A stretch of DNA of 25,735 nt from a virus (Duplodnaviria > Heunggongvirae > Uroviricota > Caudoviricetes): the IMG/VR virus record IMGVR_UViG_2534681655_000008. One strand, 5' to 3'. The notes under the pieces were generated by a model. It did not search any database, was not told where the DNA came from, and worked only from the letters and a program-made list of their open reading frames with translations. Position 1 is the stretch's first letter, and each line of letters opens with the position of its first letter. This document shows, in pieces, positions 1-25,735 of this stretch. The position numbers and the translations under genes were made by a program.

Positions 1-392
1 TACAGGACTTCATGCTGGGAGCGGTGGAACGCCGCTTCGGCAACGATCTTCCGTCGTCTCCAGTGGAGTGGCTGACGGATAATGGTTCATGCTACCGGGC
101 TAATGAAACACGCCAGTTCGCCCGGATGTTGGGACTTGAACCGAAGAACACGGCGGTGCGGAGTCCGGAGAGTAACGGAATAGCAGAGAGCTTCGTGAAA
201 ACGATAAAGCGTGACTACATCAGTATCATGCCCAAACCAGACGGGTTAACGGCAGCAAAGAACCTTGCAGAGGCGTTCGAGCATTATAACGAATGGCATC
301 CGCATAGTGCGCTGGGTTATCGCTCGCCACGGGAATATCTGCGGCAGCGGGCTTGTAATGGGTTAAGTGATAACAGATGTCTGGAAATATAG
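1..392 (+). CDS. insD: IS2 transposase OrfB (InsD) C-terminal fragment, 5' truncated by window edge
   Basis: Translation ...[28 protein letters not shown]...[24 protein letters not shown] matches the integrase-core (rve) C-terminus of IS2 OrfB; stop TAG at 390-392. Confidence 0.85.
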
Positions 393-403
393 GGGCAAAT
401 CCA
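1..403 (+). mobile_element. IS2 (IS3 family), 3' portion only; element continues beyond window start; right terminal repeat ends at GGGGCAAATCCA (392-403)
   Basis: Sequence matches recalled IS2 right end, including the orfB C-terminus and the terminal TAGGGGCAAATCCA; an adjacent phage ORF reads into the IS. Confidence 0.85.
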
Positions 404-10598: not shown

Positions 10599-10674
10599 GG
10601 CCCTTTAGCTCAGTGGTGAGAGCGAGCGACTCATAATCGCCAGGTCGCTGGTTCAAATCCAGCAAGGGCCACCA
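10599..10674 (+). tRNA. tRNA with CAU anticodon, tRNA-Ile2 (lysidine type)-like
   Basis: Full cloverleaf folded by hand (7-bp acceptor, D stem GCTC/GAGC, anticodon stem, T stem GCTGG/CCAGC, encoded CCA); near-identical to recalled E. coli ileX. Confidence 0.8.
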
Positions 10675-10675
10675 A

Positions 10676-10752
10676 CTGCCACTAGCTCATCAGGAAAGAG
10701 CGTCAACCCTTTAAGTTGAGAGTGCGAGGTTCGAGTCCCCGGTGGCGGTCCA
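10676..10752 (+). tRNA. Atypical tRNA-like gene, anticodon loop CCUUUAA (nominal anticodon UUU)
   Basis: Cloverleaf folds (acceptor CTGCCAC/GTGGCGG with one G-U, D stem GCTC/GAGC, anticodon stem TCAAC/GTTGA, T loop TTCGAGT, CCA) but C at position 33, C1-G72 and one T-stem mismatch are unusual. Confidence 0.5.
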
Positions 10753-10754
10753 GT

Positions 10755-10830
<76 letters not shown>

Positions 10831-10833
10831 TGT

Positions 10834-10908
<75 letters not shown>

Positions 10909-11419: not shown

Positions 11420-11764
11420 ATGACACAAAAATATGAACTGATTGTGAAAGGGATCCGCAATTTTGAGAATAAAGTTACGGTAACTTTAGCATTACGGGAC
11501 AAAAAACGCTTTGACGGTGAAATTTTAGACCTGGACATCTCGCTGGACCGTGTTGAAGGTGCCGCGCTGGAGTTTTATGAGGCAGCAGCCAGAAGGAGCA
11601 TCAGACAGGTCTTCCTGGATGTTGCTGCCGGGTTATGTGAAGGGGATGAGCAGTCACCGGAAAAGCGCCCCATAATTTTAGAGGCGCAGGGTGTGTGGAT
11701 AACCTACAAAGGAAAACTGCCGGGAAGAATTACTGGTTCACTGAAGACTCCGCCGAAATGGTAA
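11420..11764 (+). CDS. DUF1327-like (YdfR-like) protein located between holin and endolysin
   Basis: 114 aa, protein-like; same position as ydfR in the E. coli Qin lysis region (recalled); GGGGAGAG ribosome-binding site. Confidence 0.5.
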   Translation: MTQKYELIVKGIRNFENKVTVTLALRDKKRFDGEILDLDISLDRVEGAALEFYEAAARRSIRQVFLDVAAGLCEGDEQSPEKRPIILEAQGVWITYKGKLPGRITGSLKTPPKW

Positions 11765-12002
11765 TTTCACCAGCATATTTTTCTTCCAGTAATACCGCCA
11801 GCCACTTGAAAGAATTTTGTTGTTGCTGGGACCATTTGGGGTTGAGTGATTCAAGCTGGAGCGATGCCAGTGTTGGTTGCATTTGTTCCTTGGGAATTGA
11901 GAATGCCAGATATGAAAATGCGACAGTAAGGGCATTTACATCATCCCGAAGCTTGGAAATGCAGTCGAGCAACTCCTGTAGAGAAATGGTGCTATTGTCC
12001 AT
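11730..12002 (-). CDS. Candidate small protein (90 aa) encoded antisense within the lysis cassette, convergent with and overlapping the DUF1327 gene 3' end by 35 bp
   Basis: ATG 12002 preceded by GAGAGGA Shine-Dalgarno at 6-nt spacing; non-repetitive protein-like composition; local GC lower than neighbours. Confidence 0.4.
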   Translation of the reverse strand: MDNSTISLQELLDCISKLRDDVNALTVAFSYLAFSIPKEQMQPTLASLQLESLNPKWSQQQQNSFKWLAVLLEEKYAGEITISAESSVNQ

Positions 12003-12107
12003 AAACAATCCTCTCTATTGTATTTAACTATTCCTTGCCTGATTCAACAGGCCGGGACAGATAAACATATCCAGGGTTCAGAAACCGATAAATCCTGATA
12101 AATATCC

Positions 12108-12641
12108 ATGAGCGCAAAAATCAAATACGGCCTGTCAGCTGCTGTTCTGGCGCTGATTGCTGCAGGCGCGTCTGCTCCTCAAATACTTGACCAGTTTCTG
12201 GATGAAAAAGAGGGTAACCACACTACGGCATACCGCGATGGTTCCGGTATATGGACCATCTGTCGTGGTGCCACAATGGTGGATGGTAAGCCCGTCATAC
12301 CGGGAATGAAGCTGTCGAAGGAAAAATGCGACCAGGTTAACGCTATTGAACGTGATAAGGCGCTGGCATGGGTGGAGCGCAATATTAAAGTACCACTGAC
12401 CGAACCACAGAAAGCGGGTATAGCGTCATTTTGTCCCTATAACATTGGCCCCGGTAAGTGTTTCCCGTCGACGTTTTATAAGCGGCTGAATGCCGGTGAT
12501 CGTAAGAGTGCATACGAGGCGATTCGCTGGTGGATAAAAGATGGTGGGCGCGATTGCCGCATACGTTCAAATAACTGCTATGGACAGGTTATTCGTCGTG
12601 ACCAGGAAAGCGCATTAGCCTGTTGGGGGATAGATCAGTGA
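12108..12641 (+). CDS. SAR endolysin (T4-lysozyme-like muramidase with N-terminal signal-anchor-release domain)
   Basis: N-terminal Gly/Ala-rich weakly hydrophobic segment [16 protein letters not shown] followed by the catalytic E...D...T region ([22 protein letters not shown]); pairs with pinholin. Confidence 0.8.
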
Positions 12642-22680: not shown

Positions 22681-23070
22681 ATGATGTTTCTGAAACAGGG
22701 CACGTTTAATTATGAAAAGCAGTCCGTGGTGCTCAGTGAGCTGTCCGGGCTGCAGAGAATTGAATATCTGGCGTTTGTTCAGCAGCGAACGGCAAAGTTT
22801 GATGCCGAAGAGGGAGAACTGCCGGAGGCTGAACGACAGATTGCTTTTCTGCGGATGGGGATGGATATCAATGCCTGGCTGGTTTCCCGCTCACTGTGGA
22901 ATGCGGAACAGTCTCAGGATGTTGAGACGCTTTGCGCATCCGTTATTACAACATGGTCGTATGATGCCCTGGGAGCGGGGGCGGAGATGGTTCTGTCGCT
23001 GAGCGGTATGGGAGCCATTGAGAATGCCGGGGATTTGGAGCATGAGGTGCTGACGCCGGAAAAGTCCTGA
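22681..23070 (+). CDS. Tail assembly chaperone (lambda gpG-like)
   Basis: MMFLKQGTF...VVLSELSGLQRIEYLAF parallels lambda G (MFLKTESFE...VTLSELSALQRIEHLAL); GGTGGAG ribosome-binding site. Confidence 0.8.
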   Translation: MMFLKQGTFNYEKQSVVLSELSGLQRIEYLAFVQQRTAKFDAEEGELPEAERQIAFLRMGMDINAWLVSRSLWNAEQSQDVETLCASVITTWSYDALGAGAEMVLSLSGMGAIENAGDLEHEVLTPEKS

Positions 23071-23306
23071 CGCGGGAAATGCAGTTTGTCATGCGGCTTG
23101 CCCGGGAGTTCCGGCGGGCAGACTGGCGGCGGATGCTGTCGGAAATGTCAGCCACTGAGCTTGGTGAGTGGGGCGATTATTTCCGGATGCAGAGCTTCAG
23201 TGATGTGTGGATGGATGCGCAGTTTGCCTCGCTGAAGGCATTGATCGTGAGAATGGTGTCCGGCAGCAGTGATGCTGCGGTGGCTGATTTCAGCCTTTTA
23301 CCGTAA
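23046..23306 (+). CDS. gpT-like -1 frame (expected to be expressed as a G-T fusion by programmed frameshift), 3' truncated by the IS66-family insertion
   Basis: -1 frame opens at 23046 and overlaps the G 3' end; putative slip site GGAAAAG at 23058-23064; stop TAA 23304-23306 is supplied by the IS terminal GTAAGCG. Confidence 0.55.
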   Translation, partial: GADAGKVLTREMQFVMRLAREFRRADWRRMLSEMSATELGEWGDYFRMQSFSDVWMDAQFASLKALIVRMVSGSSDAAVADFSLLP

Positions 23307-23339
23307 GCGTGCAGCAAGAACCGTATTGACGGGGATGTG

Positions 23340-24877
23340 TTATTCAGTCGGCAGTGCTACGCGCCAGGGGAGCAGTTCGCCGACCCGGTTTATCGGCCAG
23401 TCGGCTATGACGTCAAGGACATAGCGGAGGTAGCTTTCTGGCTCCACTCCGTTCAGTTTGCACGTCCCGATCAGGCTGTACAGCAGCGCTCCCCGCTCTC
23501 CTCCATGATCCGAACCGAAGAACAGGTAGTTTTTGCGGCCCAGACTGACCATCCGCAACGCATTTTCAGCGATGTTATTGTCCGCCTCAGCCCAGCCATC
23601 ATCTGCATAGTACGTCAGCGCCAGCCACTGGTTCAGGGCGTATGCGAACGCTTTCGCCAGTTCTGAGTGTCGCGACAGGGTTTTCATCTTTTCACGCAGC
23701 CAGCTTTCCAGGGATTTCAGCAGCGGTTTCGTTTTCAACTGACGTTCGGCAAGGCGCTGCTCCGCCGTCATTCCCCTTATCTCTGCCTCGATGGCGTACA
23801 GTTCGCCGATCCGTTCAGCGCTTCCTCCGTCAGGGCTGACGGGGTGCGAACGTGCACATCGTGGATTTTACGGCGGGCGTGAGCCCAACAGGCGGCTTCC
23901 GTTATCCGGCCATCCCGGTACAGCTCGTTGAACCCGGCGTATGCATCCGCCTGCAGTACACCACTGAACCCCGCAAGATGGGTCTGCGGATGGATGCCTT
24001 TTCTGTCCGGGCTGTAAGCGAACCACACCGCCGGCGCCAGCGTTGACCCGGCGTTACGGTCGTCACGAACGTAGGTCCATAACCGCCCGGTCTTCGTTTT
24101 CTTATTGCCTGGCAACAGCACCGGGACAGGCGTGTCATCAGCATGGAGCTTACCGTCAGTCAGCACATAGTCCTGAAGCGCTTCTTCCAGCGGTGACAGT
24201 AGCCGGCAGCATGCATCCACCCAGCCCGACAGCAGTGAACGACTCAGCTCCACGCCCTGGCGGCCGTACATTTCAGACTGGCGGTACAGCGGGGTGTGCT
24301 CTGCATACTTTGAGATCAGCACGCGGGCCAGCAGCCCCGGTCCTGCGATACCCCGCTCGATGGGCCGTGAAGGCGCGGGGGCCTGCACGATGGCATCGCA
24401 CTGAGTACAGGCATGCTTTTCACGTACAGTCCGGATAACCCGGAAGGCGCTGCGCATCAACTCCAGCTGTTCGGCGGCATCCTCACCCAGATAGCTCAGC
24501 GAGCCTCCACATTCCGGGCAGCATGACGCTGCCGGCAGCAGCCGTTTTTCATCGCGGGGGAGTGATTCGGGGAACGGTTTGCGGGTGCGGGTTTGACGCA
24601 GCGGGCGCTGCACGGCCGGGTCGTCAACCCGACCGGTAAGGGTATCACTTTCTTTCTGAAGTGCCTTCAGGTCAGCTTCCATCTGTGCGATACGACGGGA
24701 GACTTTTTCCGAGCGGCTGCCGAAGTTCATCCGGCGCAGCTTATCCAGCTGTGCCTGCAGATGGTCTATTTCGCGTTCACGCTCGTTCAGCTTTTCCAGC
24801 AGGGCACGGTTCAGCGCCTCCTGTTCGGCAAGGAGACGTTTCAGTGCATTGATATCGTCAGGAAGTGAGCTGCTCAT
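23340..24877 (-). pseudogene. tnpC: IS66-family transposase TnpC, split into two frames by an apparent 1-nt deletion near 23814-23818
   Basis: N-terminal ORF (24877-23777) and C-terminal ORF (23771-23340) both match IS66 TnpC; the C-terminal frame is open upstream and would read ...[22 protein letters not shown]... as recalled for intact homologues. Confidence 0.7.
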
Positions 24878-24936
24878 ACCGGGTATATTACCAGGCTCAT
24901 TCAGCGTCGACCAGGATAAAGAGGCTTACAACATAG

Positions 24937-25272
24937 TCAGGACGTAAGTAGTCTTTTAGGCTGCCGCCAGTCGATACCTTCCAGCAGCATCGCCAGCTGT
25001 GCCGGTGTGAGGAACACTTTGCCATCCCGGGCTGACGGCCAGGCGAAGCGGCCGCGCTCCAGCCGTTTGGTCAGCAGACACAGTCCATCGCCGGTAGACC
25101 AGAGGAGCTTTACCTGACTGCCATTACGCCCACGGAAGATAAAAACGTGACCTGACATCGGATCGTCTTTCAGCGTCGTCTGCACCTTTGCCGCCAGGCC
25201 GTTGAAGCCGTTTCTCATATCGGTGATGCCAGCGACCAGCCAGATCTTTGTCCCTGATGGTAATGGGATCAA
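24937..25272 (-). CDS. tnpB: IS66-family accessory protein TnpB (Orf2)
   Basis: 111 aa MIPLPSGTKIWLVAGITDMRNGFNGLAAKVQ... matches recalled IS66 Orf2. Confidence 0.85.
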   Translation of the reverse strand: MIPLPSGTKIWLVAGITDMRNGFNGLAAKVQTTLKDDPMSGHVFIFRGRNGSQVKLLWSTGDGLCLLTKRLERGRFAWPSARDGKVFLTPAQLAMLLEGIDWRQPKRLLTS

Positions 25273-25673
25273 CGTTTGAGCTCCCGTATCAGCAGGTTCA
25301 GGATATTTTCGCTGATGGCACCATTCAGACGGAGTGATCCGTGCCGGAACGTCACTTCACAGCTGATATTGAGTGATTCAGGTGTCGCAGCAGCTACAGG
25401 TTGTGACCGGGGGGAGGTTGTAGGGACAACATCTTCGGCATCAAGTGTTATCGGGAGCAGCTCAGGCACGTTGTTTTCTGTTGTTGAAGGAGGACGTAGT
25501 TTTCCTTCGCGCCAGTACTGGCGCCACTTGAACAGCAAATTATCGTTGATCCCATGCTCACGAGCGAGTTGCGCTACGGAGATCTCTGGTCGATGCGAGA
25601 GTTCCACCATTTTGATTTTGAACTCAACGGGATAATTAGGGCTTTTTTTACGCACTGCGGTTAATGATTTCAT
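25269..25673 (-). CDS. tnpA: IS66-family accessory protein TnpA (Orf1)
   Basis: ELSHRPEISVAQLAREHGINDNLLFKWRQ... HTH-like Orf1 signature; start may be at an internal Met (25610). Confidence 0.7.
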   Translation of the reverse strand: MKSLTAVRKKSPNYPVEFKIKMVELSHRPEISVAQLAREHGINDNLLFKWRQYWREGKLRPPSTTENNVPELLPITLDAEDVVPTTSPRSQPVAAATPESLNISCEVTFRHGSLRLNGAISENILNLLIRELKR

Positions 25674-25735
25674 GAATAGCGTCCACCATATTTGGTGTCC
25701 ACTATTCTCTCAGGAATTTCAGGATCTGCCAGACG

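Follow-up and report, generated by a model that had tools for sequence, protein, structure and literature searches.

The tail module of a lambdoid prophage in E. coli breaks off at an insertion sequence (IS) that lies in gene T, and the question is whether DNA was lost at this site or whether the module is only interrupted there. The window that we analyzed, 25,735 nucleotides (nt) long, is the entire draft contig APXH01000118.1 of assembly GCA_000356465.2 and carries a prophage with an HK97-type head and a lambda-type tail. Only the IS follows T within the window, and a second IS borders the phage DNA on its other side. Both observations fit the reading of the initial annotation, in which an IS-mediated deletion ended at this IS and took away the 3' end of T together with the tape-measure gene and tail module, leaving a defective remnant. 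The second IS, also reported at the left edge by that annotation, is the right end of IS2 and was confirmed at 1-403 (plus strand). It abuts the prophage inside a yfdQ-like gene, window position 404 corresponding to position 12001 of the relative L033, within yfdQ, and is context rather than part of the insertion in T. It is also correct that the window holds no tape-measure gene, because it ends inside the IS.

The element in gene T is ISEc22

An IS66-family element beginning at 23303 with GTAAGCG had been proposed, and the terminus was indeed found at 23303-23309. The element (23303-25735, minus strand) is 99.4-99.9% identical over about 2.45 kb to copies of ISEc22 labelled as such by PGAP, rather than to the ISfinder entry itself. 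Under the ISfinder convention, copies above about 90% nucleotide identity are regarded as the same IS. Of its 2452 nt, the window contains the first 2433; an intact reference copy has 2454 bp. The region matches 6,190 E. coli records with identities up to 99.9%, and, judged by sequence similarity, the match is not a product of chance.

The features of the IS66 family were present as well. The terminal inverted repeats are imperfect and start with GTAAGCG: the tnpC-proximal repeat, GTAAGCGTGCAGCAAGAACCGT (23303-23324), and its counterpart at the other end, GTAAGCGTCGTCTCAGCACCGT, agree in 15 of 22 positions, without a mismatch in the first 8. This far end was seen in a second contig of the assembly (see below) and in strain D4. 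Furthermore, an 8-bp target-site duplication, CTTTTACC, lies on both sides of the IS. The gene order, assigned with Pfam, is tnpA, tnpB, tnpC. The tnpA gene (25269-25673, minus strand; 134 aa) matches HTH_Tnp_1 (E-value 9e-12) and overlaps the start of tnpB by 4 nt (TTGA); tnpB (24937-25272, minus strand; PF05717, TnpB_IS66, 1.5e-38) encodes 111 aa versus 115 in the complete protein. As the initial annotation had noted, tnpC is split into two frames. Its N-terminal fragment (23777-24877, minus strand; 366 aa, of which 354 are native and 12 out of frame) carries the leucine-zipper LZ_Tnp_IS66, the zinc-finger zf-IS66 and positions 1-177 of DDE_Tnp_IS66; its C-terminal fragment (23340-23771, minus strand; 143 aa), which starts at the equivalent of Met370, carries DDE_Tnp_IS66 positions 194-283 and IS66_C. 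The two DDE_Tnp_IS66 matches have E-values of 2e-64 and 7e-29.

The intact ISEc22 of strain D4 has the same three genes, the termini GTAAGCG...CGCTTAC, a length of 2454 bp and an 8-bp duplication; relatives of ISEc22 within the family include IS66, IS679 and ISEc8. As assembled, the element in the window has two 1-nt deletions, which affect tnpC (codon 355) and the 3' end of tnpB. One alignment to D4 reached 19 nt upstream of the IS and was considered as a sign of target preference, but proved to be a spurious gapped extension. The target duplication in D4 is GCCTGATC, which is unrelated to CTTTTACC.

The element supplies the stop codon of gene T

Immediately upstream of the element lies a G/T tail chaperone region of the lambda type. 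Gene G (22684-23070, plus strand) is intact, encodes 128 aa with a PF06894 domain (E-value 2e-39) and is annotated as gpG in the two relatives examined, L001 and L033. It is followed by a PF06223 T domain in the -1 frame, a relation read directly from the coordinates, which are 1 mod 3 for G and 0 mod 3 for T. On its two sides the pair is flanked by the genes for the major tail protein and the tape measure: a Phage_TTP/Big_2 gene lies upstream of it, and H was found directly past the IS on the second contig. The intact order in relatives is G, T, H, M, L, K, I, J. The region thus resembles lambda gpG/gpGT in both Pfam families, in the -1 position of T over the end of G and in its place between major tail protein and tape measure, and it differs in that T is cut by the IS past residue 75 of 109. 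A second difference concerns the putative slip site. Lambda requires both gpG and gpGT, and its slip site is GGGAAAG (PMC3296357). In the window, the T frame does not open before 23046, and G ends with its stop codon at 23068-23070; the sole candidate in this 25-nt overlap is GGAAAAG (23058-23064, plus strand). As this site is one base off the lambda heptamer and is not a canonical XXXYYYZ motif, we infer the gpGT mechanism itself by homology.

The truncated T (23079-23306, plus strand) encodes 75 aa from its ATG at 23079 compared to 109 aa in both relatives and in most members of the T 90% cluster, the last 34 residues being missing. Counted from 23046, the open T frame has 86 codons, in agreement with the approximate length given earlier for the T-specific part, and T is indeed shorter than expected: only positions 1-47 of the 73 in the PF06223 profile are matched, so that the domain is not full length. 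The frame reads CCG (23301-23303) followed by TAA (23304-23306), and in the alignment the phage identity to intact T genes extends through the G at 23303 and no further; the stop codon is therefore supplied by the IS, as had been proposed. With a slash marking the breakpoint, strain 510016 reads CCTTTTACCG/GAAGAG, whereas the window reads CCTTTTACCG/TAAGCG.

Many Qin-like defective prophages encode a T protein of 75 aa that is identical to that of the window, ending in SLLP. One could read this as a T frame that is naturally short in this phage lineage. However, the Qin-like prophages bear an independent deletion, without any IS, which joins T to an internal fragment of the tape-measure gene H at a TACC microhomology, CCTTTTACC/ATAAATCAG, and they have lost much of the tail module. 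Together with the 1,842 E. coli records that cover the stretch from G through T as far as the IS, and with the length of 109 aa in both relatives and most cluster members, this makes natural shortness barely conceivable. The same microhomology deletion into H rules out that the 75-aa T of the Qin-like prophages goes back to an IS event in a shared ancestor.

T and the downstream tail genes continue beyond the element

Contig APXH01000118.1 ends 19 nt short of the far, tnpA-proximal end of ISEc22. The other end is carried by contig APXH01000063.1 (L027) of the same assembly, where CTTTTACC comes next, and then the last 34 codons of T, an intact H of 1018 aa, M and the start of L. The junction reads ...GACGACGCTTAC/CTTTTACC/GGAAGAG.... 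The same far-end junction was found in contig L022 of a sister assembly, which runs on through L, K and I. The left copy of the duplication occupies 23295-23302, the position suggested for it in the initial annotation, and its second copy lies past the far IS end in both contigs. When T was rebuilt without the IS and one of the duplicates, as an alignment with intact homologues had been suggested, 330 of 330 nt were identical to strain 510016, and the product of 109 aa was identical to WP_001161009.1. The H frame is open over all 1018 aa, 993 of which are identical to the H of one relative.

These data speak directly to the proposed deletion. A deletion adjacent to the IS would have destroyed both the duplication and the contiguity of T, and both are present in the two assemblies, the far IS end being joined to the very next nucleotide of T with an intact H behind it. 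An IS-mediated deletion is therefore refuted at the T junction and has become a very improbable account of the locus. The initial annotation had itself named an intact 3' portion of T and a tape-measure gene beyond the IS, with a matching duplication, as evidence against its reading, and this is the arrangement that we found.

The two contigs are separate because the assembler broke inside a multi-copy IS, and we infer their adjacency from the matching half-junctions, no read or contig spanning the IS. At least five copies of ISEc22 are present in this genome. Hence a second alternative has to be weighed, in which a simple insertion was followed by recombination between identical ISEc22 copies that inverted or translocated DNA, so that the head genes, G and the 5' part of T now lie apart from the 3' part of T, H, M and L. 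Such a later event would leave both half-junctions unchanged. Moreover, one plasmid-borne pair of ISEc22 junctions lacks a matching duplication (AGGAAATA versus GTTTTTAT), so that some rearrangement or an unsampled ISEc22 copy must exist. Against this, there is no positive evidence for recombination at T, and four of the five junction pairs in the assembly match neatly: besides the pair in T, three more show perfect 8-bp duplications, and one of the pairs, at glpQ/inaA, agrees with the K-12 gene order. We thus consider recombination improbable, if somewhat less so than a deletion.

Since a matching duplication and the continuation of T and H beyond the far IS end identify the junction as one of simple insertion, we favor, with a probability of roughly 90%, a simple insertion of ISEc22 into prophage gene T with an 8-bp duplication and no loss of DNA, which probably left the prophage tail-defective. 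ISEc22 would have transposed into codon 75/76 of T in a lambda-like prophage, generating the usual duplication of the 8-bp target CTTTTACC. No DNA would have been lost at the site, the remainder of T as well as H, M and L lying directly past the other IS end.

We also searched for this junction elsewhere. An exact scan of the genome_contigs collection gave 0 matches, because that collection holds one genome per species. Among 5,426 complete E. coli genomes, none had the phage/IS junction, homologues aligning only up to 23307. A longer query was covered to 80% or more by two records, which we assumed to reflect joined phage and IS pieces. A literature search for the assembly accession found no papers.

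Frameshifts in tnpC and tnpB as assembled

In an alignment with the intact ISEc22 of D4, tnpC has lost 1 nt at 23814-23815 (TTT to TT, which is AAA to AA in the coding direction), and the loss splits it at codon 355 of 512. Similarly, a 1-nt deletion at 24940-24941 (GGG to GG) removes the last four residues, LTML, of TnpB. As assembled, the element therefore lacks the uninterrupted tnpC that is required for autonomy, though not for family membership, and the allele of the physical copy may differ. Indeed, of the contig ends in the assembly that bear ISEc22, all 10 that were checked had one and the same ISEc22 body, with the split tnpC and the 111-aa tnpB; between the window and its partner contig, the identity of the body was 100%. 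Judged from these ends, the shared body looks like a collapsed repeat consensus. One identical body at all 10 ends means that the frameshifts are not attributable to the copy inserted in T; the 1-nt deletions may truly exist in all copies or in some of them, but may also be consensus errors. In a comparison over 12,655 nt, the tnpB indel was the sole difference between the window and the sister contig L006, which has GGG.

Neither allele was found as an exact, full-length match in complete E. coli genomes. None of the 4,148 matching sites agreed exactly with the AA allele of tnpC, the undeleted AAA being the best match in all 2,582 complete-genome records with this tnpC segment, and the GG allele of tnpB had no full-length exact match. 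The corresponding protein fragments are recorded only for strains P0298942.x and 2862600. A 111-aa TnpB does occur in 76 index blocks, and a widespread allele was considered. However, the naming sources call it 'partial', so that the majority probably represent proteins truncated where a contig stops. Programmed frameshifting was likewise rejected for the split tnpC: a slippery motif is absent from the site, CTG AAC GGA, and AAA is the best match in each of the 2,582 records.

There is also the possibility that the tnpC frameshift is real in all of the at least five copies of the clone, each with its own 8-bp duplication, and that a transposase-dead element multiplied after its inactivation. 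We regard this as unlikely. If true, it would require an IS66-family transposase acting in trans, or a split DDE transposase reassembling from its N- and C-terminal fragments. This possible amplification of a frameshifted ISEc22 is the only thread here of even mild further interest.

Consequences for the prophage

With the insertion of ISEc22 in T, the -1 frameshift product gpGT would end in SLLP at the TAA of the IS, without about a third of the T domain. In addition, the 2.45-kb IS, 77 nt ahead of the start codon of H, would place 2.45 kb of antisense IS between the late promoter and H and the distal tail genes. By analogy with lambda genetics, the loss of the last 34 residues from gpGT means that the prophage is probably tail-defective; given both this truncation and the IS between the late promoter and H, heads would probably still be packaged with DNA while tails would not be built. 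The description of the locus as a defective prophage remnant hence survives in part: a defect is likely, through the truncated gpGT and the IS ahead of H, but the loss of the tape-measure gene is not supported.

The insertion of ISEc22 into a prophage T gene is an ordinary event of an already known kind. IS-inactivated lambdoid prophages are familiar from E. coli and Shigella, IS629 in O157 prophages being one example, and a resident IS in a late structural gene probably fixes such a prophage in the chromosome. Nothing of substance sets the present case apart, which adds another example with ISEc22. It does carry a lesson of method: a contig end inside a multi-copy IS is not readable as a deletion, and as the IS body at such ends is a shared consensus, pseudogene calls within it are unreliable. 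Beyond annotation the significance is small. In the P0298942.x/2862600 clone of E. coli, the lambdoid prophage is interrupted, not truncated, at its tail module.

An ISEc22 element interrupts gene T

The prophage encodes gene G at 22684-23070 (plus strand, PF06894), followed by the T frame, which lies in the -1 frame relative to G, is open from position 23046 and has an ATG at 23079. T covers positions 1-47 of the 73 in the PF06223 profile and ends with ...CTT TTA CCG TAA, the stop codon (23304-23306) lying within an insertion sequence. In an alignment to strain 510016, whose G-T-H region is intact, identity was perfect through G 23303, and no identity was found beyond it. Because this G is common to phage and IS, the boundary can be placed on either side of it. 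Since intact T has 109 residues, 34 C-terminal residues are missing from the T of the window.

The window from 23303 onwards is taken up by an IS66-family element with three genes, reverse-complemented on the plus strand. On the minus strand we found tnpA (25673-25269, 134 aa, HTH_Tnp_1), tnpB (25272-24937, 111 aa, PF05717), which shares 4 nt (TTGA) at its start with the tnpA stop, and a split tnpC (one ORF of 366 aa at 24877-23777, another of 143 aa at 23771-23340); the terminus GTAAGCG occupies 23303-23309. A BLAST search of 5,426 complete E. coli genomes yielded 6,190 records that match the IS part, with up to 99.9% identity, and PGAP labels the matching copies "IS66-like element ISEc22 family". 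The initial annotation was thus right about the family, and on re-reading the sequence all its coordinates proved correct. The intact ISEc22 of strain D4 is 2454 bp long and has the ends GTAAGCGTGCAGCAAGAACCGT ... ACGGTGCTGAGACGACGCTTAC; its terminal repeats agree in 15 of 22 positions. The 8-bp duplication GCCTGATC lies on either side of it, and it encodes a TnpC of 512 aa and a TnpB of 115 aa. The element in the window differs from this copy by nine substitutions and by the loss of a single nucleotide at two sites.

The rest of T and an intact tape-measure gene lie on a partner contig

An exact look-up with the 366-aa TnpC fragment identified the window as the entire draft contig APXH01000118.1 of GCA_000356465.2 (25,735 bp). 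It starts inside an IS2 and stops 19 nt short of the far ISEc22 end, so that both ends are assembly breaks in repeats rather than biological boundaries. At the left edge, the right end of IS2 (1-403) adjoins phage DNA inside a yfdQ-like early gene, window position 404 corresponding to position 12001 of the relative L033, inside yfdQ at 11602-12426. An ORF on the minus strand (829-317) runs from phage DNA into IS2.

Ten contigs of GCA_000356465.2 were found by look-up with the 111-aa TnpB to end in ISEc22. In one of them, APXH01000063.1 (L027, 6191 bp), the tnpA-proximal IS end is joined to phage DNA, with the junction ...GACGACGCTTAC / CTTTTACC / GGAAGAGAACGGG... Here, CTTTTACC is the 8-bp duplication of 23295-23302, as the initial annotation had proposed for these positions, and T resumes after it with its next nucleotide. 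Rebuilt without the IS and one duplicate, T was identical to that of strain 510016 at 330/330 nt. It is followed on L027 by a tape-measure gene open over 1018 aa (with 993/1018 identity to a relative), by M and by the first part of L. The same right junction was present in the sister assembly GCA_000356525.2, where the sequence continues through L, K and I, and the same left junction in the sister assemblies L006 and L007.

As the half-junctions share the duplication and are accompanied by a contiguous T and an intact H, they indicate that the ISEc22 insertion in T is simple, with no phage DNA lost at the site. The initial annotation had proposed a remnant shaped by IS-mediated deletion, and had named a T 3' portion and tape-measure gene beyond the IS, with a matching duplication, as evidence to the contrary; exactly this arrangement was found on L027, which refutes the deletion at the T junction.

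The two half-junctions sit on separate contigs of a genome with at least five ISEc22 copies, and later recombination between copies may have occurred, in which case both half-junctions would be preserved. Pairing the ten contig ends (L023-L032) gave five junction pairs, four with perfect 8-bp target duplications: T of the lambda-like prophage (CTTTTACC), gemA of a Mu-like prophage (CTGCGTGC), the glpQ-inaA intergenic region (GGTTGGTT) and an island next to yqgA/speC (GGGGAGCA). At the fifth, on a plasmid near finO/traX, the flanks differ (AGGAAATA versus GTTTTTAT). For T, a simple insertion remains our reading.

Qin-like prophages share the short T by an independent deletion

An identical 75-aa T occurs in many Qin-like defective prophages (L002-L005 and L008-L011, e.g., L003, 10150-10400; compare the relative L001, 7905-7941). 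Their junction DNA reads CCTTTTACC/ATAAATCAG..., the right part being mid-H sequence, which in its intact form reads ...GATACC ATAAATCAG. Judged from these junctions, the short Qin-like T is an independent deletion over a TACC microhomology that fused T with the tape-measure gene at its middle; beyond the fusion lie a C-terminal fragment of J, lom and stf. The deletion endpoint and the IS insertion point are no more than one base apart, and TAA follows directly in the Qin-like sequence as well. Comparing the junction sequences revealed no mechanistic link between the two events, and we consider the shared endpoint a coincidence.

Predicted consequence for tail assembly

The G-T fusion protein of this prophage would lack the last 34 T residues. 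The T domain reportedly recruits the major tail protein (Xu, Hendrix and Duda, J Mol Biol 2014). Within the 25-nt G/T overlap, GGAAAAG (23058-23064) is the sole candidate for a -1 slip site; it departs from the XXXYYYZ form, unlike the GGGAAAG of lambda; the intact relative strain 510016 carries the same GGAAAAG sequence. In lambda, slippage by -1 at GGGAAAG, close to where G ends, yields gpGT, and phage production needs both gpG and gpGT (PMC3296357). H starts 77 nt beyond the 2.45-kb IS, whose genes are antisense to late transcription. The genes for terminase, portal and the protease-capsid fusion all have open frames, so heads are still possible. By analogy with lambda, the prophage would most likely still be able to make heads and be unable to make tails. 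Overall, the initial observation is confirmed and its interpretation partly supported: a defective prophage is plausible, while a deletion-shaped remnant was not borne out at the T end.

Four tRNA genes cluster at 10599-10908, with the Q antiterminator region on one side and the lysis genes on the other; one is CAT (Ile in a relative's annotation), and the others are Lys-UUU, Thr-UGU and Gly-UCC. The AAG/AAA of the putative slip site would be read by the tRNA-Lys(UUU).

Frameshifts in the IS body

Relative to the D4 copy, a 1-nt deletion (TTT to TT, 23814-23815) shifts the tnpC frame at codon 355. The first ORF thus consists of 354 native and 12 out-of-frame residues, and the second restarts at the residue equivalent to Met370. 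A second deletion (GGG to GG, 24940-24941) shortens TnpB from 115 to 111 aa, removing the last four residues. Gene calls were identical at all ten ISEc22 contig ends of GCA_000356465.2, and the IS body was 100% identical between the window and APXH01000063.1, a uniformity that would be expected of a collapsed repeat consensus.

Sister contig L006 equals the window over 12,655 nt, the sole difference being the tnpB G-run (about 11863 in L006). The GG allele was present at every ISEc22 contig end checked in GCA_000356465.2 and absent from sister assemblies that otherwise match it over 12.6 kb, and a probe over it had no full-length exact match in complete genomes. Because a strain-specific mutation in all copies at once is implausible, the tnpB indel probably arose as an artefact of the repeat consensus or else represents a variant of one copy. 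The tnpC deletion is common to the assemblies labelled P0298942.x and 2862600, the fragments being recorded only there (32 contigs), and none of 4,148 places in 2,582 complete-genome records matched a 61-nt probe over it exactly. The tnpC split does exist in the sequence as assembled and is not assignable to the copy in T. By our rough estimate, the odds slightly favor its presence in at least one ISEc22 copy of the clone; its presence in all of them seems improbable.

Taken together, the data describe a routine insertion of ISEc22 in a late gene of a prophage, viewed across a contig break, and as such known biology. The only non-trivial reading left is that of a tnpC split in all copies, in which case a dead IS would have multiplied.
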